Assembly: GCF_000196355.1 (NCBI RefSeq)
Contig: NC_007614.1
Coordinates: forward strand, 300,001 to 332,000
From: Nitrosospira multiformis ATCC 25196
Lineage (GTDB): Bacteria > Pseudomonadota > Gammaproteobacteria > Burkholderiales > Nitrosomonadaceae
Reading direction: 5' to 3'
Length of the DNA: 32,000 bases
Below are positions 168 through 29,071 of the stretch, one piece after another (the first letter of the stretch is position 1; every line of letters begins with the position of its first letter). A model generated the notes under the pieces. That model did not search any database, was not told the DNA's origin, and worked only from the letters and a program-made list of their open reading frames with translations. A program made the position numbers and the translations under genes.

Positions 168-1526
168 TTGAACACACTTCCAGATCCAGAAAGTAACATT
201 GAGGGCATCCATCGCTTTCGACGCCGCCACAGAATTGCCGCTCCCTTGTTTCAGCTCCTCGATTCGCATGTTTTCCTGCCGGCGTGTTTCATACTTTTCG
301 TGGCATTGCGCGTAGCCCTGATTTTCTTTGTGCCCGTTGAGATGACTTCCGATGCAAGCTGGTACTTCAACAGAGCGGTTGGCATAGCGAGCGGCGGCGG
401 CTATTCGGAAGCGGGGTATCCGACAGCCTATTGGCCGGTTGGCTATCCCGGCTTTCTTGGTATCCTTTTCTATCTTTTCGGTCGGGATCAATTGGTAGGG
501 CAGATAGCTAATTTGGTTATGGCAGCCCTCAGTTTTTTTCTGCAACTGGAGCTGACACGAAGAATTTTCCGGAGCGAAGCCGCTGCCCGCTTGGGCGTCC
601 TCCTGCTTACCCTATATCCGAATCATGTAGCTTATACGTCTTTTATCTTAACCGAGGTTTACTTTACCTTTTTACTGCTTCTTGGCGTATACCTCTACAT
701 CACAAGGAGCCGATGGTTATGGATATGGGTTTGCGGCATTGTCTTCGGGCTGGCCGCGCTGACCAAACCGCAAGCAGTGTTCTTGCCTGGTCTGCTGGTG
801 CTTTTTCACGTATTCAGCGCCGAGAGAAAGGATAGGCTGAGGCAGCACCTCATCAAGGGATTTGCAATCTATCTTGCTATGGCTATGGTGCTGGTCCCCT
901 GGGCGGTGCGGAACACGATGATTTTCGGGGAGCTCGTCCTGATTTCCACTAACGGAGGGGCAACGCTCCTGACCGGAAATCATCCCACAGCCAGCGGAGG
1001 CTATGAGGAAAACGATCCGCTGGTGGCCCAGCGCAATTTCTCGGTTCAGGATCAGGTGGAATCTGACCGGCGCGCAAAGAAGCTGGCAACCGATTGGATA
1101 AGGGAAAACCCCGTGCGGTTTGTAGAGCTTATCCCTCTGAAGATATGGCATCTGTGGTCCAGAAATGGCGAAGCGGAGTGGGCCTATCAGGCGGGGTACC
1201 GGTACTATGAGCAGTATAGCGGCGCGTTCCGAACCATGAGGTGGATAAATCAGATCTTTTATGCTCTGCTGCTTGTGGGCTCGTTCGCGGCAGCTTTCCT
1301 GTTGATAAGGCATCCCGATAAAGTCGCTTGGCCGTGGGTGCTCGTGGGATACTGCCTGATGATTTACCTGACCTTGATATCGGTGGTCTTTTCCGGGCAA
1401 CCCAGGTTTCATTTTCCGGCCATGCCATGGGCCATCATGTATGCAGCGTGGGCAGCCGTGATGATCACGGTGAATCAGACCCGGGAACGGTATGACGCCT
1501 ACGTCTCCAGAACATCGGATTTCTAG
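168..1526 (+). CDS. Polytopic membrane glycosyltransferase, GT-C fold (GT39/PMT_2, ArnT-like)
   Basis: 452-aa ORF with many hydrophobic segments. The early loop SDASWYFNRAVGIASGGGYSEAGYPTAYWPVGYPGF resembles the acidic/aromatic first periplasmic loop of ArnT/PMT-type enzymes. Start uncertain: TTG at 168 or in-frame TTG at 246, and no clear SD. Confidence 0.55.
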   Translation: MNTLPDPESNIEGIHRFRRRHRIAAPLFQLLDSHVFLPACFILFVALRVALIFFVPVEMTSDASWYFNRAVGIASGGGYSEAGYPTAYWPVGYPGFLGILFYLFGRDQLVGQIANLVMAALSFFLQLELTRRIFRSEAAARLGVLLLTLYPNHVAYTSFILTEVYFTFLLLLGVYLYITRSRWLWIWVCGIVFGLAALTKPQAVFLPGLLVLFHVFSAERKDRLRQHLIKGFAIYLAMAMVLVPWAVRNTMIFGELVLISTNGGATLLTGNHPTASGGYEENDPLVAQRNFSVQDQVESDRRAKKLATDWIRENPVRFVELIPLKIWHLWSRNGEAEWAYQAGYRYYEQYSGAFRTMRWINQIFYALLLVGSFAAAFLLIRHPDKVAWPWVLVGYCLMIYLTLISVVFSGQPRFHFPAMPWAIMYAAWAAVMITVNQTRERYDAYVSRTSDF

Positions 1527-1732
1527 AGCTGCAACCGTTTCCAGACGAACAGGCACGTGCTTGACGGATGCGCTCCGTCCGGTAAAGAGGCGGATAATTC
1601 CGATCTTTCCAGGTCTTCCCATTGCAATACGTCTTCACCTGGAAAAGTAAATTAAATCATCTCCACTTGAAGCTGTAATTAAGTAGAATTTGACCCGGGG
1701 CACCAGAAGATGAAGGAATCGGATCTGATCAT

Positions 1733-2683
1733 ATGCCATTGGAAATCAGCATTGTCTCCACCATGTACCGGTCGCGGCCGTTTCTTGACCGGTTCCTTGC
1801 CGAATCCCTGCAAGCCTTGTCTGCGATCAAGTGTGACCATTTTGAGATATTGCTCGTCAATGATGGCTCGCCGGATGAGTCCCTGGCTTACGCGCTCGAA
1901 CGCCGGAGAGACATCCCGCAACTCGTGGTGGTTGATCTTGCGCGGAACTTTGGGCATCACGCTGCTATACAGGCTGGATTACGGCATGCACGGGGAAATC
2001 TCGTTTTTCTCATCGACTGCGACCTGGAGGTGTCGCCGCTGGTGCTGGCAGAGTTTTATTCCAAACTACGCGAGACCAAATCCGACGTCGTTTTTGGCTA
2101 TCAGGACGTACGCAAAGGCGGGCGGTTCGAACAAATCAGCGGCGGTCTGTTCTGGAAGGGATTCAACCTGCTCAGCGATGTAAAGATTCCTGAAAACATT
2201 CTTACGGAACGGATCATGACGCGCCGTTACGTGGAAGCGCTACTGCAGATGGGCGACCGGAATCTTTTTCTCGGTGGTATGATGAGCTGGACAGGTTTTC
2301 AGCAGATCGGCCTGCCTGTCGTCAAGAAACAGCGTGAAGGCAGAAGCACATATACTCTCCTGCGACGTATCGGATTGATGATCAATGCAGTAAGTTCATT
2401 CTCCGCCCAGCCTCTGATCTGGCTGTTCAACATAGGCGTAGTGATTACCCTGCTGAGTTTCTCATTTGCATTCTATCTTGTATTGCGAAAGCTACTGTTT
2501 GACGACACCCTCATGGGTTTCACTTCAGTAATGACCATGATGATGCTCAGCCTCGGTATTCTCACCACGGCAATGGGCCTTGTTGGTATCTACCTGGGGA
2601 AGGTGTTCAATCAGGTGCAGAACCGTCCCAATTATATCGTGAGAAATATTTTTACCGCTGATGATCAACCTGCAACCGATTGA
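1733..2683 (+). CDS. GT2 polyprenyl-phosphate sugar transferase (ArnC/GtrB/Dpm1-like)
   Basis: N-terminal GT-A motifs ISIVSTMYRSRPFL, LLVNDGSPDES, ARNFGHHAA, FLIDCDLE. Two C-terminal hydrophobic helices (LIWLFNIGVVITLLSFSFAFYLVL; VMTMMMLSLGILTTAMGLVGIYLG), typical of the ArnC/GtrB architecture. Confidence 0.75.
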   Translation: MPLEISIVSTMYRSRPFLDRFLAESLQALSAIKCDHFEILLVNDGSPDESLAYALERRRDIPQLVVVDLARNFGHHAAIQAGLRHARGNLVFLIDCDLEVSPLVLAEFYSKLRETKSDVVFGYQDVRKGGRFEQISGGLFWKGFNLLSDVKIPENILTERIMTRRYVEALLQMGDRNLFLGGMMSWTGFQQIGLPVVKKQREGRSTYTLLRRIGLMINAVSSFSAQPLIWLFNIGVVITLLSFSFAFYLVLRKLLFDDTLMGFTSVMTMMMLSLGILTTAMGLVGIYLGKVFNQVQNRPNYIVRNIFTADDQPATD

Positions 2684-2780
2684 CAGGACAGTAACGCGGC
2701 GTCCTTCTGATTTAGAATGAAGAGCAAGGGATAATTAAAAAGCTCGTGCTCCATTTCTGCTTAAATAAAGGAAGATATTC

Positions 2781-3497
2781 ATGAGCCTGGAAAATGAGCA
2801 GGATCCAACCGCATATGATCGCACTTATGTCCTGGATAACCGGCTAACCCTACAGTGGTATCCCCAAAGAGTCGTTGCGATGGCGCAAACAGGCAGCATG
2901 TTGGAACTGGGCTTGGGGCATGGTTACTCCACCGAATATTTTGCAAAGACTTTTCAGCGCTACCAAGTGATTGAAGGCTCCCAGGAGATGATTGACCGTT
3001 TCAGAGAACACTTCGCAATCGAGGGCGTTGATATCGCGCAGGGGTATTTCGAGGATTTCGAGACTGACGAACGCTTTGATGCGATTGGCATGGGTTTTGT
3101 TCTGGAGCATGTGGACAATCCGGCTGCGATTATACGACGCTATGCGCAGTTCCTTTCTCCAGGCGGATCCATTTATATTGCCGTCCCGAACGCTGAATCC
3201 CTTCACCGGAGGCTGGGGCATGCTGCCGGCCTGCTTCCCGACATGTATGCTTTAAGTTCAGCCGATCTCGAATTCGGCCATAAGCGTTATTTCTCTCTGG
3301 AATCGCTGGTTGAAATGGTAGAGGGTGAGGGATTGGAGATACGCAAGGTTGAAGGCCTCTTGCTCAAGCCGATCACGACGCAACAGATACTCGATTTGAA
3401 TCTCAGCGAAGCAATCTTGCAGGCCATGCTCAAAGTAGGCGTTGATTATCCCGAGCTATGCAACTCTTTACTGATCCAGGCGAGCAAGCTCCGCTAG
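2781..3497 (+). CDS. Class I SAM-dependent methyltransferase
   Basis: Motif I MLELGLGHG, acidic loop VIEGS, post-I region FDAIGMGFVLEHV, GGSIYIAVPN. AAGGAAG SD-like sequence upstream of the ATG. Confidence 0.75.
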   Translation: MSLENEQDPTAYDRTYVLDNRLTLQWYPQRVVAMAQTGSMLELGLGHGYSTEYFAKTFQRYQVIEGSQEMIDRFREHFAIEGVDIAQGYFEDFETDERFDAIGMGFVLEHVDNPAAIIRRYAQFLSPGGSIYIAVPNAESLHRRLGHAAGLLPDMYALSSADLEFGHKRYFSLESLVEMVEGEGLEIRKVEGLLLKPITTQQILDLNLSEAILQAMLKVGVDYPELCNSLLIQASKLR

Positions 3498-3548
3498 CAC
3501 AGGCGTCCAGCGCCATCATAAAAACCTGAACTGGCTGCGTAACAGGAA

Positions 3549-3974
3549 ATGCAATTTTCAATGCAGGCGTTCGCTCTTCGCTTCCACCATTTTGGTCTGG
3601 CCAGCAGACGGCCGGAGCAGACGCTTAAGTTCCTCAAGGGGTTGGGCCATGAAGTGGCTAGGCAGGTCTACGACCCGCTGCAAAACGTGAATCTCTGGCT
3701 GTGCCCCCATTCTTCCATGCCTACTGTGGAGTTGGTCGCGCCTGCGGAGGGGCAGGGTCCCCTGGATGCAATCCTCACCCAAGCGAGCGAAAGCATTTAC
3801 CATCTCTGTTATGAAACCGAAAATCTCAAAGCCAGTCTTGAAGCCTTGAAGGCAGGTGGATTCCGCGTAATTTGCGTATCACCTCCAAAACCTGCAATCC
3901 TCTTCGATGACAGACGGGTCAGCTTCTATATGATTAAGGATTTTGGCATAATCGAATTGCTGGAATCCCGTTGA
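3549..3974 (+). CDS. VOC-fold protein (glyoxalase / methylmalonyl-CoA epimerase-like)
   Basis: 141 aa with the paired beta-alpha-beta-beta-beta signature FHHFGLA ... VELVAP ... YHLCYE ... GIIELLE, typical of MCE/glyoxalase I-like proteins. AGGAA precedes the ATG. Confidence 0.6.
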   Translation: MQFSMQAFALRFHHFGLASRRPEQTLKFLKGLGHEVARQVYDPLQNVNLWLCPHSSMPTVELVAPAEGQGPLDAILTQASESIYHLCYETENLKASLEALKAGGFRVICVSPPKPAILFDDRRVSFYMIKDFGIIELLESR

Positions 3975-3989
3975 CGATATCGGAGAAAA

Positions 3990-5768
3990 GTGTTTACAGC
4001 AGTTTCCTCATTCCCCGGGGATATTCCCCCGACCCTGTCGGATCTTATCAGTACCTCCGATACCATGGATGCCGCAATGTCCTCTACGGCTCCCGCATAT
4101 CGCTTCGGTTTCTTACGCAACGTAACGCTGGAAGGAATTGAGCCTTATCTGCGCTACCACATGTTGAGGATGGGACTGCGGCCTGAGCTGATCTTTGGAG
4201 GTTATGGATCCATCCGTCAGGATCTGATATTACCCGACTCACCCTTGGTCAAATATTGTCCAGATCTTCTAGTAACGGCGTTTATGCTTGAGGAATTGGA
4301 TCCGCATTACGGTCTCCCCGGGTGGAACGCATCCCATTGCCGGGAGGAGTTGAGTACTATTTTTGACGCCTTGGCGGCCAGCGACGCCCCCACCATCAGC
4401 CTCAATACGTTCATCGTTCCCTTTCGCTCGGAGACTGGCACACTCATCGCGGCTCAGGACATTGCGAGCGAGGTCATCAGACTTAATGATTTTGTCCGGA
4501 CCTTTGTCCGTGAGCACAGCCCGCGTTTCTGTATAATGGACTGGGACCGGCTTGCCCACCGTATTGGCGAGGCCGAGGCCATGGACTACCGGTACTGGTA
4601 TATTTCCAAGGCCCCATTCAAACGATCCTTTCTCGATGCCCTGGCGCGGGAATTAACGAAAGTTGTGCTTGCCCTCAAGGGGCATACCAAGAAATGCCTG
4701 GTCCTGGATTGTGATAATACGCTTTGGGGCGGCGTTGTCGGAGAGGATGGCATTGAAGGTATCCATCTGGATGGTCATGATTATCCAGGGCGGGCGTATT
4801 ACGATTTTCAGAAGACTGTCCTCCAATTGGCCGAACGTGGCGTATTAATAACGCTTTGTTCGAAGAACAACGAACAGGACGTGCTCGATGTCCTCGACAA
4901 GCATCCCTGGAGCCTGCTCAAGCGCAACCACCTGTCCGGCTTCCGGATCAACTGGGACGACAAGGCTGCCAACTTGGTCGAGTTGGCAAAGGAGCTGAAT
5001 CTCGGTCTCGATGCTTTTGTATTCGTGGATGACAATCGGCGAGAGCTGGAATTAATACGACAGGTACTTCCTCAAGTGACAACCTTGCAAGTGCCGGACA
5101 GGCTCTATGAATACCCGGCATTGCTACAGCGAGATGGACTGTTCGATACGTTGATAACCAGCCAAGAGGATAAACTGCGAACCAGCCTTTATCAGACCGA
5201 AGCGCAGCGCAAAGCCGAACGAAATCAGCATCCGGATTTGGAGAGCTATCTTTTATCGTTGCAATTGGTGGTGAATATTCAAGTTGCAACCGACCGGGAG
5301 GCAATGCGGGTTGTACAGCTGACCCAGAAAACGAATCAGTTCAATTTAACGACCCGGCGCTATTCCGACCACGATATTGCACGGTTTCGCTCATCCAAGG
5401 ACGCCTGTGTCTATACCTTATCCGCCAGCGACCGTTTTGGCTCTCTTGGATTGGTAGGCGTATTTATAGTCCAACGCCGCCAAGAGACCGCCGTGGTCGA
5501 TTCCCTTTTGATGAGTTGCAGAGCGCTAGGCCGCCGCCTTGAGATAGCCTTTGTTCTGGAGTGCATGCGGCGTGTTGTAGCGGATTGGGGAATCCTCGCC
5601 TGGGAAGCAGAATACCTGTCCACAGCAAAGAACAGTCAAGTAGCGGATTTCTGGAGTACCCTTGGTTTTGCTCTGCTGGAACAAGCGGAAGGATACCGGC
5701 GCTATCGTTTGCAGGCCGCCATGCCAGAGATCGATCCACCGAGCTTTATTCATATTGAAAGAGAGTAG
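3990..5768 (+). CDS. FkbH-like HAD-IIIC phosphatase/acyl-loading protein
   Basis: HAD motif I CLVLDCDNTLWGG, motif II LCSKNN, motif IV FVFVDDN. C-terminal GNAT-like region VVQLTQKTNQFNLTTRRY ... LMSCRALGRRLE, typical of FkbH-family proteins. GTG start with GGAG 6 nt upstream; alternative ATGs at 4065 and 4074. Confidence 0.75.
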   Translation: MFTAVSSFPGDIPPTLSDLISTSDTMDAAMSSTAPAYRFGFLRNVTLEGIEPYLRYHMLRMGLRPELIFGGYGSIRQDLILPDSPLVKYCPDLLVTAFMLEELDPHYGLPGWNASHCREELSTIFDALAASDAPTISLNTFIVPFRSETGTLIAAQDIASEVIRLNDFVRTFVREHSPRFCIMDWDRLAHRIGEAEAMDYRYWYISKAPFKRSFLDALARELTKVVLALKGHTKKCLVLDCDNTLWGGVVGEDGIEGIHLDGHDYPGRAYYDFQKTVLQLAERGVLITLCSKNNEQDVLDVLDKHPWSLLKRNHLSGFRINWDDKAANLVELAKELNLGLDAFVFVDDNRRELELIRQVLPQVTTLQVPDRLYEYPALLQRDGLFDTLITSQEDKLRTSLYQTEAQRKAERNQHPDLESYLLSLQLVVNIQVATDREAMRVVQLTQKTNQFNLTTRRYSDHDIARFRSSKDACVYTLSASDRFGSLGLVGVFIVQRRQETAVVDSLLMSCRALGRRLEIAFVLECMRRVVADWGILAWEAEYLSTAKNSQVADFWSTLGFALLEQAEGYRRYRLQAAMPEIDPPSFIHIERE

Positions 5769-5776
5769 GCATTGAT

Positions 5777-6013
5777 ATGTCTGATATAGAGAATCGCACC
5801 CGTGACGTTATGGCGAAAGTCCTGCAAATCGCACCGCAAGATATCTCTCCGGACATTTCACGTAAGAATCTTCCCGCGTGGGACTCACTCAAGCACATGA
5901 ATCTGATACTGGCCTTGGAGGAGGAATTCGGCATCGAGTTCAGTGACAAGGAAATAGCCGATCTAAACAGCCTGCACCTTTTAGTGGACGCTTTGCGGAC
6001 CAAGCATTCATGA
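5777..6013 (+). CDS. Acyl carrier protein
   Basis: 78 aa with the phosphopantetheine attachment motif WDSLKHMNLILALEEEFG (DSL Ser). Lies immediately downstream of the FkbH-like gene. Confidence 0.8.
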   Translation: MSDIENRTRDVMAKVLQIAPQDISPDISRKNLPAWDSLKHMNLILALEEEFGIEFSDKEIADLNSLHLLVDALRTKHS

Positions 6014-6690
6014 ATGGTCAGTCCGATAGGCCTTTAGTCATCTTCGGCGTGGGAGAACTGGCCCAGCTGGCCTGCTATTACTTTACCCATGATAGCCCCC
6101 GCCGCGTCGCTGCTTTTACCGTAGACCGCACCCATTTCCGGGAAAATCAATGCATGGGGCTACCGGTGCTTGCCTTTGATGAGGTAGATACGCGCTATGC
6201 GCCCGAGGAATACGATATGTTTGTGGCCTTGGGCTATACCCGACTAAATCGGGCCAGAGCCGAAAAATGCGTGGAAGCCAAATCCCGTGGCTACCGGCTG
6301 GCGACATATGTCAGCAGTCGAAGCGTGACTTGGCCCGATCTGATCGTCGGCGAGAACTGTTTCATCATGGAGGGAAACGTAATTCAGCCCTTCGTGCGAA
6401 TAGGCAACAATGTCATCATCTGGTGCGGCAGTCTTGTCAGTCATCACGTCGAAATTGACGACCATTGCTTCATCGCTGCTCACGCAGTCATCTCGGGTCA
6501 TGTAAAGATAGGTGCTCACAGCTTCATCGGTGTAAACGCAACCCTACGCGACAAGATAACTCTGGCGGAGCGCACTCTGCTCGGTGCGGGTGCTCTGGTC
6601 ACCGCCAGTACTGACGAGAATACCGCGTACCTCACTGCACCCAGCCAGGAAGCTGGCGTACCCAGCCATCGGCTGCAATCCTTGCTCTAG
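6010..6690 (+). CDS. Left-handed beta-helix sugar N-acyltransferase (NeuD/PglD/VioB family)
   Basis: N-terminal Rossmann-like LVIFGVGELAQ followed by hexapeptide repeats IGNNVIIWCGSLVSHHVEIDDHCFIAAHAVISGHVKIGAHSFIGVNATL. ATGA start/stop overlap with the ACP gene. Confidence 0.75.
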   Translation: MNGQSDRPLVIFGVGELAQLACYYFTHDSPRRVAAFTVDRTHFRENQCMGLPVLAFDEVDTRYAPEEYDMFVALGYTRLNRARAEKCVEAKSRGYRLATYVSSRSVTWPDLIVGENCFIMEGNVIQPFVRIGNNVIIWCGSLVSHHVEIDDHCFIAAHAVISGHVKIGAHSFIGVNATLRDKITLAERTLLGAGALVTASTDENTAYLTAPSQEAGVPSHRLQSLL

Positions 6691-6702
6691 CAGAGCCATA
6701 TC

Positions 6703-7431
6703 ATGCAAGCCAGGCACAATAAAGTTGCCATCCTGCAATCCAATTACATCCCCTGGAAAGGCTACTTCGATCTCATTCACGACGTCGACCTGTTCATTTT
6801 CTACGACGACGTGCAGTACACCTTGAGAGACTGGCGCAACCGAAACAGGATCAAAACTCCCCGCGGGGTGGACTGGCTAACGGTGCCTACCAACGGTACC
6901 CGGCAGCATTTGATCTGCGAAGTCGAGTTTACCGACCCAAGGTGGCAATCGAAACATTGGGAAACATTGCGGCACAACTATGGAAAGACGCCTTATTTCG
7001 AACGCTACCGGCCGTTTTTCGAGGATGTCTATCTGGGCAGGCGATGGGACCATCTCTCTCAGCTGAATCAATATCTCATCGAACAAATTTCGCATCAATT
7101 CCTGGGCATTACCACGATTTTTGCAGATTCGCGCCGTTATAGAGCCACAGGGGAAAAACAGGCGCGCATAGTCGATCTGCTAACCAAGGCGGCTGCCTCG
7201 CTTTACGTTTCGGGGCCAGCTGCCAGGAGCTATATCGATGAAGCGCATTTTTCCCGGATCGGCATCGAACTGGTGTGGAAGGATTATGGCGGCTACCCGG
7301 AATATCCGCAATCTCACCCTCCCTTTGAACATGCCGTTACCATATTGGATTTACTGTTTCATACCGGACCGGAGGCGCCCTATTACATATGGGGATGGCG
7401 CGCCAACGTCGACTCAAACAACGATAAATGA
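6703..7431 (+). CDS. WbqC-family protein (function unknown, glycan-locus associated)
   Basis: N-terminus VAILQSNYIPWKGYFDLIHDVDLFIFYDDVQYTLRDWRNRNRIKT matches the WbqC-like family signature as I recall it. Confidence 0.7.
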   Translation: MQARHNKVAILQSNYIPWKGYFDLIHDVDLFIFYDDVQYTLRDWRNRNRIKTPRGVDWLTVPTNGTRQHLICEVEFTDPRWQSKHWETLRHNYGKTPYFERYRPFFEDVYLGRRWDHLSQLNQYLIEQISHQFLGITTIFADSRRYRATGEKQARIVDLLTKAAASLYVSGPAARSYIDEAHFSRIGIELVWKDYGGYPEYPQSHPPFEHAVTILDLLFHTGPEAPYYIWGWRANVDSNNDK

Positions 7432-7793
7432 TAAGTTATTTTTATATTTTTCTTACGATTGTCTTTACCGTTTACGGACAAATCGTGCTTAAGTGGCAGG
7501 TCATCGGTGCCGGTGAATTTCCAGCGAGCGCGTCGGACAAGATATTGTTTTTGGCCCGGCTCGTGCTCAATCCCTGGGTCATCAGCGGTTTCCTGGCTGC
7601 ATTCCTTGCATCGCTGACCTGGATGGCAGCAATGACTAAGCTGGAGCTGAGCCATGGTTACCCTTTCATGAGCCTCAATTTCGTATTTGTAATTGTTTTG
7701 AGCAATCTGCTGTTCCATGAAGCGATCACGATGCCGAAAATGCTCGGTCTGGGTTTGATTATCCTCGGCATCGCAGTCGGGAGCCGGGGTTGA
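7428..7793 (+). CDS. Small four-helix DMT/SMR-like membrane protein (ArnE/ArnF-like candidate lipid-linked sugar flippase)
   Basis: 121 aa with four hydrophobic segments. ATGA overlap with the WbqC gene and TTGA overlap with the next gene. Size and topology resemble EamA-half/SMR proteins such as ArnE/ArnF. Confidence 0.6.
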   Translation: MISYFYIFLTIVFTVYGQIVLKWQVIGAGEFPASASDKILFLARLVLNPWVISGFLAAFLASLTWMAAMTKLELSHGYPFMSLNFVFVIVLSNLLFHEAITMPKMLGLGLIILGIAVGSRG

Positions 7794-8668
7794 AAATCTG
7801 CTTGTCATGCAGCGCCAGATTTACCGATTCCGGGTGGCGATGTCCCGTTTGCTTCTCGACCCCCGAGCAGGTGGATGGGTTTCTCAGTTTTGCGCCAGCA
7901 CAGGCGAAATCTGATGAAGGATTTCAGCCGCATCACTTCAATGAGCTGGCGCAAGCAGAAGCGGAGCACTTCTGGTTTCGTTCGCGCAATCGACTCATCA
8001 TATGGGCGTTACATCGTTTTTTCCCGGATGCCAGGAAATTTCTTGAAATCGGTTGCGGAACAGGATTTGTGCTGTCGGGCATAGCACAGGACAATCCCCG
8101 TCTCGAAATCAGTGGAAGCGAGATTCATTCGGCGGGCTTGAGTCACGCGGCAGATCGCGCAAGGAACGCCACACTGTTTCAAATGGATGCCCGCGATATT
8201 CCTTTTGATAGCGAATTCGATGTCATCGGTGCTTTTGATGTGCTTGAACACATTGAGGAAGACTCGCAGGTATTGTTGCAAATGTTTCGCGCCATCTCAC
8301 CCGGGGGAGGTATGATTGTCACCGTGCCCCAACACCGTTTCCTGTGGAGTCAGCAGGATGAGCATGCGTGTCATGTTCGACGCTATGAAGCTCAGGAACT
8401 GCAGGATAAGGTGGAAAAGGCGGGATTTCGGGTGGAAAAGGCGACATCGTTTGTATCGCTGCTGTTACCTCTGATGTTCATATCGCGATTGTCCAAACGC
8501 AAACCTGTCGAGAACTATGACCCGACACAGGAGTTCAGGATCAAAAAATGGGTAAACACGATTCTCGAGGGAATCCTTGATCTGGAACGTCTGATGATTC
8601 GCGGGCGAGTCTCATTTCCGATGGGCGGGTCGCGATTGCTGATTGCCCGAAAACCAGCAGGGGCGTAA
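7790..8668 (+). CDS. Class I SAM-dependent methyltransferase with N-terminal zinc ribbon
   Basis: N-terminal CLSC...RCPVC (CxxC-x11-CxxC). Motif I FLEIGCGTGF, then DVIGAFDVLEHI and GGGMIVTVP. TTG start overlaps the upstream stop. Confidence 0.7.
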   Translation: MKICLSCSARFTDSGWRCPVCFSTPEQVDGFLSFAPAQAKSDEGFQPHHFNELAQAEAEHFWFRSRNRLIIWALHRFFPDARKFLEIGCGTGFVLSGIAQDNPRLEISGSEIHSAGLSHAADRARNATLFQMDARDIPFDSEFDVIGAFDVLEHIEEDSQVLLQMFRAISPGGGMIVTVPQHRFLWSQQDEHACHVRRYEAQELQDKVEKAGFRVEKATSFVSLLLPLMFISRLSKRKPVENYDPTQEFRIKKWVNTILEGILDLERLMIRGRVSFPMGGSRLLIARKPAGA

Positions 8669-8675
8669 TCACCAT

Positions 8676-9800
8676 ATGCAAATACCGTTCAACAAACCCT
8701 ATATGACCGGGAAGGAGCTATGGTATGTCAGCCAGGCTCATGCGAACGGACATCTGGCCGGCGACGGGGTTTTCACGAAGAAATGCAATGCGTGGCTGGA
8801 ACGCCGGATCGGGTGTAAAAAAGCGTTGCTGACGCATTCCTGCACGGCTGCGCTGGAGATGGCGGCCATTCTTGCGCAGATCGGACCCGGCGATGAGGTC
8901 ATCATGCCTTCCTATACTTTCGTCTCCACCGCCAATGCGTTCGCATTGAGAGGGGGCGTGCCTGTATTCGTGGACATCCGGCCTGATACATTCAATATCG
9001 ACGAAACCCTGATCGAGGCTGCCATCACCCCGAAAACCAAAGCGATCGTTGCTGTTCACTACGCGGGAGTGGGATGCGAGATGGATGCCATCATGTCCAT
9101 CGCCGAACGGTATGGTTTGTTCGTGATCGAGGATGCAGCCCAGGGTCTTATGTCAACCTACAAGGGCAGACCGCTGGGCAGTATCGGCCATCTCGCAGCG
9201 CTGAGCTTCCACGAGACCAAGAACATCATTTCCGGGGAAGGGGGAGCTCTGCTGGTGAACGACGCACGCTTTGCGGAGCAAGCGGAAATAATCAGGGAAA
9301 AAGGTACCAATCGCAGTCAGTTTTTTCGTGGGCAGGTGGATAAGTATACCTGGGTGGATTTCGGCTCATCCTATCTTCCCAGTGAACTCATTGCTGCCTT
9401 TCTCTGGGCTCAGATAGAGGAGGCGGATGCAATCACGCAACGCCGTCTCGATATCTGGGACGTCTACCACGCTAATTTCGAACTTTTGGAAAAACAGGGG
9501 AAGATCCATCGTCCGACCATTCCTTCTGATTGCATGCACAACGCCCATATGTACTATCTCCTGTTGCCCGACCTGGACAGGCGCACCGCTTTCATCAACG
9601 CTCTCCGGCAGAAGGGAATAGGAACAGTTTTTCATTACGTTCCTCTTGACAGCTCTCCCATGGGGGAAAAGTGGGGCCGCAAGTCAGGCGCATTAACGCG
9701 GACACGAGAGTTGAGCGACCGGCTGGTCAGGCTGCCGCTATGGCTGGGCCTGGAGGAATACCAGAACGAAGTCATTCAGCATGTCGCGGCCGAGTTATGA
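8676..9800 (+). CDS. wecE: dTDP-4-amino-4,6-dideoxy-D-galactose (Fuc4N) transaminase, WecE/RffA-like (DegT/DnrJ/EryC1 family)
   Basis: Long stretches match my recollection of E. coli WecE: MQIPFNKPY, SCTAALEMAA, GDEVIMPSYTFVSTANAF, VDIRPDTFNIDETLIEAAITPKTKAIV, SFHETKN (PLP Lys), IIREKGTNRSQFFRGQVDKYTW. ATG at 8676 preferred over the in-frame TTG at 8643. Confidence 0.85.
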   Translation: MQIPFNKPYMTGKELWYVSQAHANGHLAGDGVFTKKCNAWLERRIGCKKALLTHSCTAALEMAAILAQIGPGDEVIMPSYTFVSTANAFALRGGVPVFVDIRPDTFNIDETLIEAAITPKTKAIVAVHYAGVGCEMDAIMSIAERYGLFVIEDAAQGLMSTYKGRPLGSIGHLAALSFHETKNIISGEGGALLVNDARFAEQAEIIREKGTNRSQFFRGQVDKYTWVDFGSSYLPSELIAAFLWAQIEEADAITQRRLDIWDVYHANFELLEKQGKIHRPTIPSDCMHNAHMYYLLLPDLDRRTAFINALRQKGIGTVFHYVPLDSSPMGEKWGRKSGALTRTRELSDRLVRLPLWLGLEEYQNEVIQHVAAEL

Positions 9801-9930
9801 AAAAGTCACGTTCCAGTTTCCATATTCTTTGCATAAGTCATCTGGCGCGGCTTCCTATATGTTCCTGACTGGAGTTTCGCGTAAATCTTCCGTTAAGCCA
9901 TGCTGGACCTGACCGCACTGCAAAAAATTG

Positions 9931-11148
9931 ATGCGAATTCTGCATATCCTTGATCACTCCATTCCCCTGCACAGCGGCTACACTTTCCGAACGCTTTCGA
10001 TTCTGAATGAACAACGGAACCTGGGGTGGGAAACCTTTCATCTGACCGGATCGAAGCAGGAAAATTGCAGTGTGCTGGAAGAGTGCGTGGAAGGATGGCA
10101 TTTTTATCGTACCCCAGCCCCGTCAGGACTGAGGGCACGGCTGCCCGTCTTGAATCAGCTGGCTGTCATGGAGGCTCTTACCCATCGCCTGACTGAGGTG
10201 GTCAAGATTGTCGAACCGGATATCCTGCACGCGCATTCTCCAGTCCTGAACGCTTTGCCTGCCTTGCGCGTGGGGCGGAGATCGGGTATTCCTGTCGTCT
10301 ACGAAGTCCGGGCATTCTGGGAAGATGCGGCCGTAGATCACGGCACTCATCGCGAATGGGGCGCACGATATCGTCTCACCCGTGAGCTGGAGAGTTACGC
10401 GTTAAGGCATGTTGATGCAGTAACCACGATTTGTGAGGGGCTGCGCGGCGACATCCTCAAGCGGGGTATTCCGTCAGAAAAGGTAACTGTCATTCCCAAT
10501 GCGGTCAATCTCGAAACTTTCAGGATGAGCGAGCGCGGGGATTTGCAACTTGCAAACGCACTCGGGATGGAGGGCAAGGTGTTGCTCGGCTTCATCGGCT
10601 CGTTTTACGCGTATGAAGGATTGACTGTACTGCTCAACGCACTGCCCCGTATGTTAGCGGCAAATCCCGACATCCGCATTCTTCTGGTGGGAGGAGGGCC
10701 TCAGGAAGACGAATTAAAATCTCTTACAGCCCGGAGGGGTCTGCAAGGCAAGGTTATTTTCACGGGCCGCGTTCCCCATGATCAGGTTCGGCGCTATTAC
10801 AATCTGATCGATATTCTCGTTTATCCGAGATTGCCCATGCGCCTTACAGACCTGGTCACGCCCCTCAAGCCGCTGGAGGCCATGGCGCAAGGAAGGCTCG
10901 TTGCCGCTTCAGATGTAGGCGGACATCTCGAGCTCATCCAGGATGGAAAAACCGGAGTGCTTTTCAAGGCTGGCGATTCCGACGCCTTGGCAGCCCGGAT
11001 ATTGAATCTCATATCCAGCACCGATACCTGGGATACCCTTCGGGCCGGGGCGCGCGATTTTGTCGAAACCCAGCGCAACTGGGCTGGCAGCGTGGCCGGC
11101 TATAAGGAGATCTATCGCACTCTCCTTTCAAGGAAAGCATCGTCATGA
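9931..11148 (+). CDS. GT4 glycosyltransferase (resembles exosortase/PEP-CTERM-locus-associated subfamily)
   Basis: MRILHILDHSIPLHSGYTFR N-terminus. GT-B C-terminal motif PLKPLEAMAQGRLVAASDVGGHLELIQDGKTGVLF (E-x7-E). ATG at 9931 sits just after the TTG at 9928. Confidence 0.8.
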   Translation: MRILHILDHSIPLHSGYTFRTLSILNEQRNLGWETFHLTGSKQENCSVLEECVEGWHFYRTPAPSGLRARLPVLNQLAVMEALTHRLTEVVKIVEPDILHAHSPVLNALPALRVGRRSGIPVVYEVRAFWEDAAVDHGTHREWGARYRLTRELESYALRHVDAVTTICEGLRGDILKRGIPSEKVTVIPNAVNLETFRMSERGDLQLANALGMEGKVLLGFIGSFYAYEGLTVLLNALPRMLAANPDIRILLVGGGPQEDELKSLTARRGLQGKVIFTGRVPHDQVRRYYNLIDILVYPRLPMRLTDLVTPLKPLEAMAQGRLVAASDVGGHLELIQDGKTGVLFKAGDSDALAARILNLISSTDTWDTLRAGARDFVETQRNWAGSVAGYKEIYRTLLSRKASS

Positions 11149-12257
11149 AAGCTGGCTTGCGCATTGGATTGGTCGGGCCTCTGCCTCCTCCTTCAGGGGG
11201 AATGGCCAACCAGACGTTGCAGTTGGCAGGACTCCTGCGAGAAGAGCATGTTGAGGTGGAGCTGATTCAGGTCAATCGTCCCTACCGGCCTGGCTGGATT
11301 GGAAGATTCAAGGGGATCAGGGCGGGCTTCCGCCTGCTGTCCTATGTCAGCCAACTGTGGCTTTCCGCCGGCAGAGTTCAATTATTTCACGTGATGGCCA
11401 ATTCCGGCTGGTCGTGGCACTTGTTTGCTGCTCCCGCCATCTGGATTGCACGGCTCAGGGGTAAGCCGGTGATTATCAATTATCGGGGAGGCGAGGCGGA
11501 CTCCTTCTTTGATAAAGCCTTTTCGTGGGTAAAGCCGAGCTTGTCAAGAGCAAATGCAATTATCGTTCCTTCCGGGTTTCTGGAAGGGGTTTTCGGCAAA
11601 CGCGGCTTTTCGGCCAGTATCGTTCCCAATATCATCGACCTGAGCCGCTTCGGAGCAGGAATGCGGTCCGATACCTCCACGGTGGAAGCCGGACCTGACT
11701 CTCCCCATATCATCGTCACCCGCAATCTGGAGCCGATTTACGACAATGAGACTGCACTGCGCGCCTTTCACATCGTAAGACGCTCCTTCCCCGCTGCGAA
11801 GCTCACCTTGGCCGGATCCGGCCCGGAGCGGCACACGTTGGAGCAACTTGCCTTCGCATTGGGCATAGGGGGGGCCGTGACATTCACCGGGCGCGTGGAC
11901 AACGAAGGCATGGCTGCAATCTATCGCAGCGCGAGTGTGATGCTCAATCCGAGCCTCGCCGATAATATGCCTATATCGATACTTGAAGCTTTGGCAAGCG
12001 GCGTCCCGGTGGTGAGTACGAACGTGGGGGGTGTCCCCTATCTCGTTGAGCATGAAAAGAACGCCTTGCTCGTACCCGCGCGCGACCCCCAGGCGATGGC
12101 CAATGCAGTTCTGCGGCTGCTCAATGATGCAGCCAGGACCCGGCGTCTGATCGAGGCGGGTATGGAATGCGTGCAGCGCTACACCTGGCCGAACGTGCGC
12201 GTCCCCCTGTTCCGTGTCTATGAGCAGGTTCTTGCCGCACCAGACAGATCCTGTTGA
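11145..12257 (+). CDS. GT4 glycosyltransferase
   Basis: IGLVGPLPPPSGGMANQ N-terminus. C-terminal SILEALASGVPVVSTNVGGVPYLVEHEKNALLV (E-x7-E). ATGA overlap with the upstream GT4. Confidence 0.8.
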   Translation: MKAGLRIGLVGPLPPPSGGMANQTLQLAGLLREEHVEVELIQVNRPYRPGWIGRFKGIRAGFRLLSYVSQLWLSAGRVQLFHVMANSGWSWHLFAAPAIWIARLRGKPVIINYRGGEADSFFDKAFSWVKPSLSRANAIIVPSGFLEGVFGKRGFSASIVPNIIDLSRFGAGMRSDTSTVEAGPDSPHIIVTRNLEPIYDNETALRAFHIVRRSFPAAKLTLAGSGPERHTLEQLAFALGIGGAVTFTGRVDNEGMAAIYRSASVMLNPSLADNMPISILEALASGVPVVSTNVGGVPYLVEHEKNALLVPARDPQAMANAVLRLLNDAARTRRLIEAGMECVQRYTWPNVRVPLFRVYEQVLAAPDRSC

Positions 12258-12279
12258 GTGACGCTGAAAGCTTTGATAA

Positions 12280-13641
12280 ATGAAAAACAGGGACTGGTAT
12301 ACATCGCTTGTATCGGGTCTTCTCTTTCCGCTGCAAGAGCGCCTCAAGGATCACTCCACGGTATCGGTACGCAAGGCGCTGGAGCTGTCTCAATGGTGGA
12401 ATCGGGAGCGCCTGGAGAACTTGCAGCTGTTGAAGTTGCGCCATCTGCTGGCTGAAGCAGAAGCGCACGTACCTTATTACCGCCGAATATTTGCGGAGAT
12501 TGGCTTCAAGGCAGCCGAGGTGTCCAGCCTTGCCGATCTGGCGCGCTTGCCGCTTCTCGATAAACCTGCGATCCGCGCCGATACGGAGGCATTGAAGTCC
12601 CAAAAAGCCAGAAGCCTGCGCTCTTTCAACACTGGAGGGTCGAGCGGAGAACCGCTCACCTTTTATATCGGCAGGGAGCGCGTCAGCCATGATGTGGCGG
12701 CAAAGTGGCGTGCCACACGCTGGTGGGACGTGGATATCGGCGATCCTGAGATGGTGGTCTGGGGCTCTCCCATCGAACTCGGGGCGCAGGATCGTCTTCG
12801 CATGCTTCGTGATCGGCTGCTCAGAACAAGGTTGTTTCCGGCGTTCGAAATGTCGGAGCAAAAGCTCGATCGCTTCCTGGGCGAACTGCGCGCCGCGCCC
12901 CCCAGAATGTTTTTCGGCTACCCTTCGGCCTTGTCCCATATTGCCCGCCATGCGCAGGCAAGAGGACAGCGAATGGACGACCTGGGTATCAACGTGGCAT
13001 TCGTTACTTCGGAACGACTTTACGATGAACAGCGACAGCAGATCAGTAAAACCTTTGGATGTCCTGTTGCCAATGGCTATGGAGGACGCGATGCGGGTTT
13101 CATCGCCCATGAATGCCCGGAGGGTGGCATGCACATAACGGCAGAGGATATTATCGTGGAGATCGTGGATCGACAGGGGGTCCCGCTACCCTGTGGCGAA
13201 GCAGGAGAAATCATAGTCACTCATCTCTCTACCGCAGAATTTCCGTTCATTCGCTATCGCACGGGGGATATAGGAATACTGGATGATCGAATCTGTCGCT
13301 GCGGGCGAGGCCTTCCCCTTCTCCGCGAAATTCAGGGTCGCAGCACGGATTTTGTCGTCGCCCAGGATGGGACGGTCATGCATGGTCTGGCCTTGATATA
13401 CATCCTGCGAGAATTGCCGCAGATCAGTCATTTCAAAATCATCCAGGAGAGTCTGAACCTTATCCATATATGGGTGGTTTCCGGGGCAAAGCTCGATCGG
13501 GAGATCACTGCAAAAATCGAGGAAGAATTCAAGGCGCGGCTTGGGCAATCCGTTGAGGTTCTGATCGAGGAGACAACTGAAATTCCAGCAGAAAAATCCG
13601 GCAAGTTTCGTTATGTGATAAGTAAAATCGCCGGGGCTTGA
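12280..13641 (+). CDS. Adenylate-forming enzyme, phenylacetate-CoA ligase/CapK-like
   Basis: N-terminal helical region with YYRRIFAEIGF...LADLARLPLLDKPAIR. P-loop-like FNTGGSSGEPLTF, later GYGGRDAG and YRTGDIG. This layout is typical of the PaaK/CapK/F390-synthetase family. Confidence 0.7.
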   Translation: MKNRDWYTSLVSGLLFPLQERLKDHSTVSVRKALELSQWWNRERLENLQLLKLRHLLAEAEAHVPYYRRIFAEIGFKAAEVSSLADLARLPLLDKPAIRADTEALKSQKARSLRSFNTGGSSGEPLTFYIGRERVSHDVAAKWRATRWWDVDIGDPEMVVWGSPIELGAQDRLRMLRDRLLRTRLFPAFEMSEQKLDRFLGELRAAPPRMFFGYPSALSHIARHAQARGQRMDDLGINVAFVTSERLYDEQRQQISKTFGCPVANGYGGRDAGFIAHECPEGGMHITAEDIIVEIVDRQGVPLPCGEAGEIIVTHLSTAEFPFIRYRTGDIGILDDRICRCGRGLPLLREIQGRSTDFVVAQDGTVMHGLALIYILRELPQISHFKIIQESLNLIHIWVVSGAKLDREITAKIEEEFKARLGQSVEVLIEETTEIPAEKSGKFRYVISKIAGA

Positions 13642-13773
13642 AAAACATTGCAATAAGTTTCACTTCTCTACAGATATTTCGCATATCGCTACCGTCAATT
13701 CCTCCGCCTGATGAGACTTCAGTTCGATTACTTGGAATGATGGCAGGAAACACTCTTTCAGCAGTGCAAACCG

Positions 13774-15273
13774 ATGGATAAGCAGCAACATCAGTCCGAT
13801 ATTACCGCCAAGGTGTTATACGGCGCCCGCTGGTCGGCCATGCTCCGGGTGACCGGCCAAATGGTCAGCTGGCTCAGTACCATCATCGTCGTGCGCTTCA
13901 TCCGCCCGGAGGATTACGGACTCAATGCCATGTTGGAAGCGCCACTCGAACTCCTCATGCTACTCAGCACGTTTGGCCTCGACTTGGCCCTGGTCCGGTG
14001 GAAAACGATCGAGCAGGAGGAATTGCGCAGTGTCTTCGGCTCGCTGCTGATCATCAACGGACTCCTTTTTCTCGTCTATTTCTTTGGCGGCAGTCTGATG
14101 GCTGCTTATTTTGATGAACCTCGTCTTGAATCGCTGGCTCAGGTGCTGGCCTTCGTTTTTATCCTGGCACCGTTTCGGGTCATTCCCAACGCACTGCTGG
14201 ATCGTAATCTGAAATTCAAGCTGCGCGCTTTGGCCGAGTTTATTGCAAACATAAGCGCCGCTGTAGCGACACTGGTGCTTGCAATTCTCGGCTGGGGAGT
14301 CTGGGCCTTGGTATCGGGGGTGCTGATCAACCGGATTCTTCTCGCAATTATATTGATGGTCCTGCAGCCCTGGTTCATCATGCCCTCTTTGAACTTCCCG
14401 GCTGTACGCGCCATGATGGTCTTCGGCGGCGTTTTGTCCTTGGGCGGGGCAGTCGTGCTCGTCACTGACAAGCTTGCCACCCTGATTGCCGGTCCTGTTC
14501 TGGGCGCGGAATTACTCGGTATTTTTGCCGTTACCTTTCAGTTTGCGCTGTTGCCGCTCGCCAAGATAATGCCGGTAATTAATCCCATTATCTTTCCCGC
14601 ATTTTCCAAATTCCAGGATCAGCCCGGGGTGGCAACGTACTATTTGAGTAAATCTCTTGGTATTGTTTCGCTGGCCTTGTTTCCTGTCATGATAGGGCTG
14701 GCCTGCATCGCACAGGAATTCGTGGCTACGGTGCTGGGTAACAAATGGGCGGCAGTGGCTTTGCCGCTCGCATTATTGTCCACCGTGATGCCATTCAGGA
14801 TGACGACATCTTTTCTCCGGCCGGTACTGGCAAGCATGGGACGAGCCGATCTTTCGTTGAAGTCTGCTGTTTTCGCCTTGATTATCTTATTGCCGCTGAT
14901 ATTGGTGGGTGCTCATTACGGAGTGATGGGGCTGGTGATGGCCATGGTGGTGACCGAACTGATCGTCGTCTTTCTGACTATCGGCATGAGCAAGGCAGTT
15001 CTGCACACGTCCTTTACAGGGATTGCGCTGAGCCTTCGCCCCGCCATAGCCGCTTCTACAGTGATGGCGGCGTGCCTGATGGGCGCAAAAATAGCCTTGG
15101 GCGACGCATTTGGCAGTAGTGCCAACCTTATCACATTACTTATCGAAATCAGTTTTGGCGCACTTGTTTATTTCTTGACGTTGCGGATCTTCTACGGAAA
15201 ACTGCTGGATGACACCATACGGTTGTTTCTGGGCCGTAATGGGGGACTTGCTCATCTGCCAAATGAGTCGTGA
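13774..15273 (+). CDS. MOP/PST-family polysaccharide flippase (Wzx-like)
   Basis: 499 aa with about 12-14 hydrophobic segments. The N-terminal region AKVLYGARWSAMLRVTGQMVSWLSTIIVVRFIRPEDYGL is typical of polysaccharide biosynthesis (PST) transporters. Confidence 0.75.
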   Translation: MDKQQHQSDITAKVLYGARWSAMLRVTGQMVSWLSTIIVVRFIRPEDYGLNAMLEAPLELLMLLSTFGLDLALVRWKTIEQEELRSVFGSLLIINGLLFLVYFFGGSLMAAYFDEPRLESLAQVLAFVFILAPFRVIPNALLDRNLKFKLRALAEFIANISAAVATLVLAILGWGVWALVSGVLINRILLAIILMVLQPWFIMPSLNFPAVRAMMVFGGVLSLGGAVVLVTDKLATLIAGPVLGAELLGIFAVTFQFALLPLAKIMPVINPIIFPAFSKFQDQPGVATYYLSKSLGIVSLALFPVMIGLACIAQEFVATVLGNKWAAVALPLALLSTVMPFRMTTSFLRPVLASMGRADLSLKSAVFALIILLPLILVGAHYGVMGLVMAMVVTELIVVFLTIGMSKAVLHTSFTGIALSLRPAIAASTVMAACLMGAKIALGDAFGSSANLITLLIEISFGALVYFLTLRIFYGKLLDDTIRLFLGRNGGLAHLPNES

Positions 15274-22600: not shown

Positions 22601-23092
22601 CGCTGTTCCTGTGAGGGTCCGGATATATTTGCGGCATGAAACGTTCGTTATCGAAACTATTTGAAACAGCAAACCCTTGCCTGATGAACGACCAATGAAC
22701 GTTAAACCTGGATTTTATGGGATTCCATGCCATGTTGTCGTTCTTCTTCGAAAGGTGGCCAGGACAAGGAAACGGGCAGGTAATGAAAGGGTTGAAAGCA
22801 ACCGATAATTCGAAGTTGTAGACCTAACGGCTTGCTGCCATAATTACTTGAACACACTCGTGTCCGCTTCATTTTTTTGCCGTTCTGTCGTAATCAGTTC
22901 AGAATGCGACCGAATACTCCAAAGACCTCATCAACAAAGGTTTCCTCTTATCCTGGATCTTGACAAACTGATCAGTGGGAAGTTACCGATTACGCTCTGC
23001 TCTTCTGTATCTTGTACTTCGGTCCAGATATAAATCCGGATGGCTGTCGATATAATTCGGTTTATCCAAAAATCGGAATCTGAGATCGGAAC

Positions 23093-25204: not shown

Positions 25205-25265
25205 GATATAGGGGTCGAAGAGTTCATTGCCTTGTTTGCTTGCTGCTCGTGTCCGCTTTTCTTCC

Positions 25266-26288: not shown

Positions 26289-26438
26289 CGCCTGATCATA
26301 TAGGGATAGGGACTCCTGGTTTTTTCTTTATCCTCGAAGTTAATGCCGGCTTCCGCGCAACGGAAGGGAAGACCGGGAATTCCCTCTTCTTTGAGAAGTT
26401 CATATAAGTCAAGTTTCTTACGGCCATTTGCTCAATCT

Positions 26439-27901: not shown

Positions 27902-28708
<807 letters not shown>

Positions 28709-28728
28709 TTCTGCGCTGCTGTTCTTAA

Positions 28729-29034
<306 letters not shown>

Positions 29035-29071
29035 TAGTGATTGCTCCCGGTATCATTCCCAGAGGCTAGCC

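Follow-up and report, generated by a model that had tools for sequence, protein, structure and literature searches.

An FkbH-ACP cassette coupled to a sugar N-acyltransferase gene in Nitrosospira multiformis: a candidate carrier-bound acyl donor for glycan N-acylation

Introduction

What does an FkbH-like enzyme with its own acyl carrier protein (ACP) do directly upstream of a sugar N-acyltransferase gene? The question is raised by a locus of the soil nitrifier Nitrosospira multiformis ATCC 25196 (NC_007614.1, positions 300,001–332,000, forward strand), the whole 32,000-nt stretch of which was analysed here and is called the window; all N. multiformis coordinates count from its first letter. 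The N-acyl groups of bacterial amino sugars govern antigenicity, recognition by phages and lectins, and immune evasion, and the biosynthetic origin of those other than acetyl and formyl is mostly unknown. An earlier note on this DNA proposed that the ACP carries a C3 acyl donor for sugar N-acylation. From comparison with other genomes we infer that an acyl group derived from glycerate, built on the ACP and given to the sugar N-acyltransferase, is the best available explanation, and one with broad comparative support.

Results

FkbH-ACP pairs recur with amino-sugar genes across phyla

The proposed acyl-donor cassette would comprise four genes on the plus strand: a class I S-adenosylmethionine (SAM) methyltransferase gene (methyltransferase 1, 2781–3497; Methyltransf_23, E 3.6e-18; Methyltransf_11), the gene of a VOC putative metalloenzyme (3549–3974; Glyoxalase_4, E 1.7e-22), the gene of a predicted FkbH-like loader of 592 aa (3990–5768) and an ACP gene (5777–6013; PP-binding domain, E 4e-8) whose phosphopantetheine site is Ser37 in Asp36-Ser37-Leu38. 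The earlier note had described methyltransferase and VOC genes upstream of the FkbH-like gene, an ACP with a DSL motif 8 nt after it, and an ACP stop codon overlapping the start of an LbH acyltransferase gene, and all of this was confirmed. The FkbH-like gene ends with TAG (5766–5768), 8 nt precede the ACP start codon, and the ACP stop and the start of the LbH gene (6010–6690, +) share the sequence ATGA at 6010–6013.

A scan of species-representative genomes with the FkbH-like protein returned 80 loci at 33–97% identity, and their neighbours were labelled by iterated hidden Markov model searches seeded with the proteins of the N. multiformis locus. These loci span Proteobacteria, Acidobacteriota, Bacteroidota, Planctomycetota, Verrucomicrobiota, Bacillota, Nitrospirota, a candidate-phyla bacterium and a methanogen. 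The FkbH-ACP arrangement is far from chance: in 73 of 83 FkbH loci the FkbH gene has an ACP gene of like orientation within 300 bp. Neighbours within 5 kb were counted in the 62 FkbH loci that have at least 5 kb of sequence on both sides. The association of FkbH, ACP and sugar acyltransferase genes in glycan loci, for which the earlier note had proposed co-occurrence statistics, is borne out by these counts: an ACP gene is present in 62/62 and a candidate N-acyltransferase gene, of one of three folds unrelated to each other, in 50/62 (LbH in 26, GNAT in 16, AAC(3) in 10). Methyltransferase genes occur in 40 of the 62, DegT aminotransferase genes in 24 and WbqC genes in 8. In glycan loci an FkbH-ACP pair hardly ever lacks both a sugar aminotransferase and an N-acyltransferase.

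Two flavours of FkbH locus can be distinguished, a VOC type (13 loci, including that of N. multiformis) and a type with a MaoC-SDR fusion, often accompanied by FabH and an AMP-ligase. The fusion is found in none of the 13 VOC-type loci as against 35 of the 49 others, FabH likewise in 0/13 as against 16/49, and a candidate N-acyltransferase lies near FkbH in every VOC-type locus (13/13). The lack of chain-extending and of oxidising enzymes in VOC-type loci supports an unextended C3 unit. In Roseateles the order GT2, methyltransferase, VOC, FkbH, ACP, LbH, WbqC, flippase-like gene, DegT, PMT_2 is kept, with a GtrA-like protein instead of an EamA-like one in the flippase-like position.

Most VOC-less FkbH-ACP loci carry the MaoC-dehydratase/SDR fusion (37 of the loci L006–L083; for example L021, 4320–5543), and we speculate that dehydration and reduction of glyceryl-ACP could lead to acyl groups that are extended or of the lactoyl type. 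The FkbH-ACP set also accompanies glycan genes in an archaeon of the Methanospirillaceae (L074) and in one Candidatus Staskawiczbacteria genome (L080).

ACP-linked acyltransferases form two clades of their own

The acyltransferase (226 aa) belongs to the NeuD/PglB/VioB family (TIGR03570, 197 bits; cut-off 160.8). His145 aligns with His125 of PglD, and the invariant Gly163 lies 18 residues further on, in the position of the oxyanion-hole glycine. The protein resembles PglD, PerB and VioB in its score above the family cut-off, in the catalytic histidine followed by glycine 18 residues later, and in its expected acceptor, a nucleotide-linked 4-amino-6-deoxy sugar. Unlike those enzymes, it is encoded by a gene translationally coupled to an ACP gene, it falls in a clade with changed residues flanking the catalytic histidine, and it is proposed to draw its acyl group from a carrier protein, as LpxA and LpxD do, and not from acetyl-coenzyme A (acetyl-CoA). 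The acceptor would be supplied by the gene at 8643–9800 (+), whose product was rightly called WecE-like in the earlier note: it matches the WecE equivalog, a dTDP-4-keto-6-deoxyhexose 4-aminotransferase (NF008687, 623 bits, cut-off 375; TIGR02379, 612 bits). The LbH enzyme would move the C3 acyl group onto the 4-amino group of the resulting dTDP-4-amino-4,6-dideoxyhexose. We think it likely that the acyl group ends on the sugar amine and probable that the transfer is direct, through the N. multiformis LbH enzyme.

A reciprocal scan of metagenomes, anchored on LbH, gave 80 loci (L086–L165) whose proteins are 45–55% identical to the N. multiformis LbH subfamily. FkbH was found in 0/80 of these loci, VOC in 0/80 and ACPs in 1/80. 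The idea that the 226-aa LbH subfamily is specific to FkbH was rejected on this evidence; just two sub-clades are ACP-linked. The FkbH-less loci typically run WbqC, GT2, methyltransferase, LbH, a GH130-like protein, in some cases with a PhyH dioxygenase after it, and end with DegT behind a gene of GtrA- or EamA-like type; the GH130-like protein (302 aa) directly follows LbH in 52 metagenome loci, often with an overlap (for example L086, 8668–9576). The match of this ~300-aa protein to GH130 (beta-propeller) is weak, and a PhyH-family dioxygenase is often near; both are absent from the N. multiformis window.

In a neighbour-joining tree the ACP-linked LbH proteins form two clades apart from their ACP-less relatives. 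Clade A contains the N. multiformis locus, three other Nitrosospira loci, Roseateles, and one acidobacterial and one proteobacterial genome, and in it the LbH gene always stands directly after the ACP gene. Near His145, clade A has C139, S141, L or V142 and S144, whereas the other 77 LbH sequences have S (76/77), N (77), H (75) and G (77) at these four positions. Clade B always occurs within an ACP-SDR-LbH unit. One locus (L121, 1616–5517) has the order ACP, AMP-ligase, ACP, SDR, LbH and no FkbH; the loader is swapped and the ACP-SDR-LbH unit kept, which supports ACP dependence of clade B. A B12-binding radical SAM enzyme adjoins FkbH in clade B loci. The two clades are the pattern expected from sequence if the donor had changed; they are not proof of it.

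The claim of an ACP-tethered C3 donor for sugar N-acylation therefore stands in part: gene context and the distinct ACP-linked clades speak for it, but the nearest LbH relatives (45–55% identity) are ACP-less. These relatives suggest that the default donor of the LbH family is probably a CoA ester, and none of the PglD-family PDB entries listed is described with an acyl-ACP donor. Both points, together with the lack of FkbH and VOC genes in the metagenome loci and of ACP genes in all but one, weigh against an ACP-borne donor. The lack of FkbH in those loci also speaks for the strongest alternative. There, the LbH enzyme would use acetyl-CoA, as its ACP-less relatives would, and the FkbH-ACP product would go to another acceptor (as an O-acyl group on a polysaccharide, or onto a lipid or a PEP-CTERM protein) through the GNAT domain of the FkbH-like protein or an enzyme encoded elsewhere; the large exosortase-associated polysaccharide locus offers many potential acceptors. 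This alternative does not, however, account well for the overlap of the ACP and LbH genes, for an ACP-then-LbH order that is kept in the Roseateles, acidobacterial and proteobacterial genomes, or for the remodelled active-site flank of the ACP-linked clades. The gene string from 168 to 15273 holds no other acyltransferase, and elsewhere the cassette is paired with GNAT or AAC(3) N-acyltransferases. We consider the acetyl-CoA alternative unlikely.

The FkbH-like protein as a candidate glyceryl loader

The FkbH-like protein matches the FkbH domain model TIGR01686 with 281.1 bits (cut-off 146.65) and is 97–100% identical to N. multiformis proteins. It divides into an N-terminal domain (residues ~1–230), an HAD-IIIC phosphatase domain (~233–390) and a GNAT-fold domain containing Cys510 (~420–590). 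The HAD motifs that the earlier note had picked out are present as L239-D-C-D-N-T244, S291-K-N-N294 and V346-D-D-N349, and the C-terminal region, noted earlier as GNAT-like, adopts a GNAT fold in the AlphaFold model (pLDDT 82.7), in which the C-terminal part matches RimI (5isv; E 3e-7, TM 0.71). Across 25 homologues with identities down to 47%, no change is seen at D240, D242, T244, S291 to N294, K325 or D348, nor at Cys510, which lies within an S-C-R motif; D347 is conserved in at least 90%. Residues 1–390 match PDB entry 3slr at ~23% identity, an uncharacterised Bacteroides protein with the N-terminal and phosphatase domains. The open reading frame (ORF) starts with GTG at 3990. In one database record for this species (P0009, 472 aa) the start lies later, and about half of the N-terminal domain is lost; the long form is favoured because the homologues measure 583–608 aa.

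Like loaders of the FkbH/OzmB/Tmn16 type, the protein joins an HAD-IIIC phosphatase to a GNAT-fold domain, its gene is directly followed by that of a dedicated ACP, and its expected substrate is 1,3-bisphosphoglycerate; Cys510 is the putative counterpart of the conserved cysteine that forms the thioester in those loaders. The characterised OzmB (366 aa) proceeds from phosphoglyceryl-S-enzyme to glyceryl-S-enzyme and then to glyceryl-ACP (PMC9057759). By analogy with OzmB and FkbH, the N. multiformis enzyme would take 1,3-bisphosphoglycerate to form a phosphoglyceryl thioester on Cys510, the HAD domain would remove the phosphate, and the glyceryl group would then be handed to the phosphopantetheine on Ser37 of the ACP. 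We regard such loading of glyceryl onto the ACP as highly probable. The system differs from polyketide and tetronate FkbH systems in its partners, which are glycan enzymes, and in its product, which would be a sugar amide and not an extender unit for a polyketide synthase (PKS).

A point against this assignment is that, at 592 aa, the protein has ~230 N-terminal residues more than OzmB. The extra domain, the identity of only ~23% to one solved relative, and the derivation of function from 366-aa PKS enzymes would all fit a loader that takes up a unit other than glycerate, or retains the phosphate, in which case the acyl group would be something other than a simple C3 diol acid. Yet the phosphatase motifs and the cysteine are invariant, every characterised FkbH uses 1,3-bisphosphoglycerate, and bacterial sugars with N-glyceroyl and dimethylglyceroyl groups exist; a different substrate seems improbable.

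The VOC protein and methyltransferase 1 accompany FkbH

The VOC protein had been compared with methylmalonyl-CoA epimerase. It is a VOC protein by its Glyoxalase_4 match, but the epimerase model TIGR03081 gives only 32.7 bits, against a cut-off of 114.95. The index has just 52 proteins of this small subfamily, and their JGI label is methylmalonyl-CoA/ethylmalonyl-CoA epimerase. All 22 homologues compared share H14, E61, H85 and E136, which we take, by analogy with methylmalonyl-CoA epimerase, to be the four metal ligands. Four distant relatives (34–46% identity) were looked up, and all four flank an FkbH-like gene and an ACP gene (phmmer E 1e-63 to 1e-86). One lies in a nonulosonic-acid locus with NeuB and a CTP_transf_3 protein of the CMP-sugar synthetase type, in the order methyltransferase, GNAT, GNAT, VOC, FkbH, ACP (L168); another in a 3-amino-3,6-dideoxyhexose locus in the order DegT, FdtA, FkbH, ACP, VOC, GNAT (L169). 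The third adjoins an LbH-ACP-FkbH set (L167), and the fourth belongs to a methyltransferase-VOC pair next to an ACP gene and an opposite-strand FkbH-like gene (L166). These varied sugar contexts suggest that the VOC protein acts with FkbH-ACP irrespective of the sugar or of the acyltransferase fold. Judged by the genes beside all four distant relatives looked up, the VOC subfamily is specific to FkbH-ACP. As a candidate C2 epimerase or isomerase, the putatively metal-dependent VOC enzyme would work on a 2-hydroxyacyl thioester, glyceryl-ACP; epimerisation at C2 is the leading guess, though a tentative and somewhat doubtful one.

Relatives of methyltransferase 1 (phmmer E<1e-10) occur in FkbH loci only, five of them next to VOC, and the methyltransferases of FkbH-less LbH loci are other class I enzymes. 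Methyltransferases precede LbH in those FkbH-less loci, and methyltransferase 1 was considered as part of the LbH module on that ground; this was rejected, its close relatives being confined to FkbH loci. It may O-methylate the acyl group, a possibility that we take seriously while leaning a little the other way. Methyltransferases could modify the sugar instead of the acyl group, which also counts against the proposed donor pathway.

A second SAM methyltransferase gene (methyltransferase 2, 7790–8668, +; Methyltransf_23/12) is a variable accessory gene. A related Nitrosospira strain lacks it in a locus that is syntenic apart from this gene (L001, 13536–15073), so strains may differ in how many methyl groups their product bears.

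WbqC belongs with a lipid-carrier module that resembles Arn

The WbqC-family protein (6703–7431, +; PF08889, E 1e-76; 257.9 bits, gathering score 21.3) is 100% identical to a protein of N. multiformis ATCC 25196. Its gene does follow LbH, as had been noted, but it is not in the acyl cassette: LbH, WbqC, GT2, a flippase-like gene and DegT make up a module that exists independently of FkbH, as the metagenome LbH loci show. In Myxococcus fulvus, DegT, WbqC, GT2 and PMT_2 stand together without LbH or FkbH (L084, 6877–10587); type IV pilin genes are found a few kb away from this Myxococcus DegT-WbqC-PMT_2 group.

Three further genes of the N. multiformis locus, all on the plus strand, encode a GT-C membrane glycosyltransferase (168–1526; PMT_2/ArnT-like, PMT_2 E 5e-11, at least seven hydrophobic segments), a GT2 polyprenyl-phosphate glycosyltransferase (1733–2683; ArnC/GtrB/PgfS-like, full-length matches of 156 bits to PgfS and 127 bits to ArnC, two C-terminal transmembrane (TM) helices) and a small 4-TM EamA/SMR-like protein (7428–7793; ArnE/F-like, four hydrophobic segments), the proposed flippase. 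All stay under equivalog level: ArnC scores 127.5 against a cut-off of 529, ArnF 46.7 against 99, PgfS is also under its equivalog cut-off, and no equivalog match to ArnT was found among the proteins of the N. multiformis stretch. The GT2 enzyme, the 4-TM protein and the GT-C enzyme parallel the three-part Arn, Gtr and Pgf systems; this is an analogy, not membership.

The likeness to the Arn (PmrHFIJKLM) pathway for lipid A aminoarabinose extends over an aminotransferase, N-acylation of a nucleotide sugar, a GT2 enzyme acting on undecaprenyl phosphate, an SMR-like flippase and a GT-C enzyme. Unlike Arn, the N. multiformis system would use a dTDP-4-amino-4,6-dideoxyhexose, its acylating enzyme is an LbH protein and not a formyltransferase, and the operon holds no ArnD-like deacylase. 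The resemblance of the whole set indicates that the product is probably a sugar on undecaprenyl phosphate that is added in the periplasm. In this second module, to which WbqC also belongs, the GT2 enzyme, the small 4-TM protein and the GT-C enzyme would place the acylated sugar on undecaprenyl phosphate and flip it across the membrane; on the periplasmic side the GT-C enzyme would join it to the exosortase-associated polysaccharide or to a different acceptor in the envelope. By analogy with Arn, we think the sugar rather likely takes such a lipid-carrier route.

WbqC has 52 invariant residues, including the motif Q12-S-x-Y-x-P-W-K-G-Y-F-D23, and a literature search on WbqC found nothing on its function. 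Its AlphaFold model (pLDDT 92.8) gives weak fold matches to BshC, pantothenate synthetase and ATP-using enzymes of the ThiF/TcdA type, and from this model WbqC might be an ATP-dependent ligase. If so, it could itself form the amide from a free acid and the sugar amine, with LbH in a different role; the two best matches, BshC and pantothenate synthetase, are both ATP-using amide ligases, and the Myxococcus DegT-WbqC-PMT_2 group manages without any LbH. Against this, the fold similarity is borderline (E 0.02, TM 0.42), a thioesterase that could release the acid from the ACP is lacking, and WbqC occurs in so few FkbH loci (8/62) and is common in FkbH-less ones. Amide formation by WbqC is very improbable.

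Flanking genes

From 168 to 15273 every gene is on the plus strand, with successive intergenic gaps of 206, 97, 51, 15, 8, -4, 12, -4, -4, -26, 127, -4, 22 and 132 nt. Promoter-like and terminator-like sites in the N. multiformis stretch showed no excess over shuffled sequence, and the scan did not set operon boundaries. The genes 3' of the WecE-type gene encode PEP-CTERM/XrtA-type GT4 glycosyltransferases, a CapK-like ligase and a Wzx flippase, and an exosortase-associated O-antigen-ligase-like gene lies at 23864–25204. Within the polysaccharide locus are genes for a Sulfotransfer_3 protein (21581–22672, -) and the adenylyl-sulfate kinase CysC (23093–23770, +), which suggest a sulfated polymer. 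A 616-aa ORF (15317–17167, -) has no Pfam or NCBIfam match and is adjoined by two FkbM-type methyltransferase genes (17268–18161 and 18201–19094, both -). A polysaccharide deacetylase gene (25227–26288) is followed by that of a DUF3565-DUF1971 protein (26343–26909), and an F1Fo ATP synthase operon from ~27.9 kb (27902–31639) marks the end of the glycan locus.

Discussion

Taken together, the two modules suggest that an ACP-borne C3 acyl group is transferred by the LbH enzyme to a 4-amino sugar, which then follows an Arn-like export route. We favour this joined model by a little over its denial. The gene identities, the conserved catalytic residues and the association of genes across phyla are shown here; that the support for the model is associative counts against it. 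FkbH-ACP pairs are best known from polyketide, tetronate and methoxymalonyl pathways, but we rejected as extremely improbable the reading that the cassette is left over from, or serves, a small pathway of this sort that has nothing to do with the glycan, as the partner genes are lacking (no FkbI/FkbK-type dehydrogenases, FabH-like condensing enzyme or PKS among the ORFs of the 32-kb stretch, and no FkbG-type methyltransferase nearby), all neighbours are glycan genes and the synteny with glycan genes is conserved.

A wider generalization would make the VOC-FkbH-ACP set, with or without a methyltransferase, a portable acyl-donor cassette that is found in different phyla, with an archaeon and a candidate-phyla bacterium among its hosts, plugs into amino-sugar pathways as unrelated as those of 4-amino- and 3-amino-6-deoxyhexoses and nonulosonic acids, and pairs with LbH, GNAT or AAC(3) acyltransferases. 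In that case a change from a CoA to an ACP donor would have taken place at least twice among LbH enzymes of the PglD type, and the cassette would be the genetic basis of N-glyceroyl and di-O-methylglyceroyl sugars (C. jejuni flagellin, Tannerella forsythia S-layer). To us this is nearly an even call, falling slightly on the negative side.

The closest parallel in Campylobacter jejuni is the region cj1295–cj1304. By annotation, it would comprise the FkbH-domain gene cj1302, the "epimerase" gene cj1301, a SAM methyltransferase gene, ACP genes, the LbH N-acetyltransferase gene cj1298 and an aminopeptidase-like gene. It is like the N. multiformis locus in this annotated gene set, and its glycan carries an N-(2,3-di-O-methylglyceroyl) group; it is unlike it in the acceptor, which there is a nonulosonic acid on flagellin. 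An AAC(3)-DUF2172-DUF4910 (aminopeptidase-like) fusion stands directly after FkbH-ACP in nine loci (for example L022, 12041–13825) and presumably resembles cj1295–cj1297. A stand-alone AAC(3) N-acetyltransferase gene directly follows FkbH-ACP at L060, 12007–12774.

Flagellin of C. jejuni NCTC 11168 bears 5-(2,3-di-O-methylglyceroyl)-pseudaminic acid, for which the aminopeptidase-like Cj1295 is required (PMC3068675). In strain 12664 cj1302 (fkbH domain) is a pseudogene, strain 12661 is without cj1301 ("epimerase"), and dimethylglyceric-acid glycans are absent from both (PMC7099621); Sacher et al. draw no connection between the loss of cj1301/cj1302 and the missing dimethylglyceric-acid glycans (PMC7099621). 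For Pse5Am7Gra of T. forsythia, the origin of the N-glyceroyl group is described as unknown, "a major challenge" (PMC5378307). In the searchable literature cj1301 and cj1302 are not assigned to the glyceroyl group, and searches on FkbH with O-antigen, polysaccharide, pseudaminic acid, flagellin and glyceroyl-ACP found no FkbH-ACP assigned to a glycan acyl group.

A precedent of a related kind is the viosamine island of Pseudomonas syringae, where a VioB-type LbH gene lies next to genes for an ACP and fatty-acid-type enzymes and the product is thought to be an N-(3-hydroxybutanoyl) sugar. The loader there is of the FabH/FabG type and the acyl group C4, unlike the FkbH-type loader found here.

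Polyketide-style loading by FkbH-ACP has apparently been reused for glycan N-acylation, with a glycerate-derived group in place of acetate. If this is true, unusual amide decorations would become predictable from sequence in thousands of glycan loci, and there would be concrete candidates for the genes behind dimethylglyceroyl-pseudaminic acid in C. jejuni. The donor range of the PglD family would widen to carrier-protein thioesters, and glycolysis, through 1,3-bisphosphoglycerate, would be directly tied to the diversification of surface glycans. Present in the sugar clusters of many phyla, the cassette could account for uncommon sugar modifications in Campylobacter and other pathogens.

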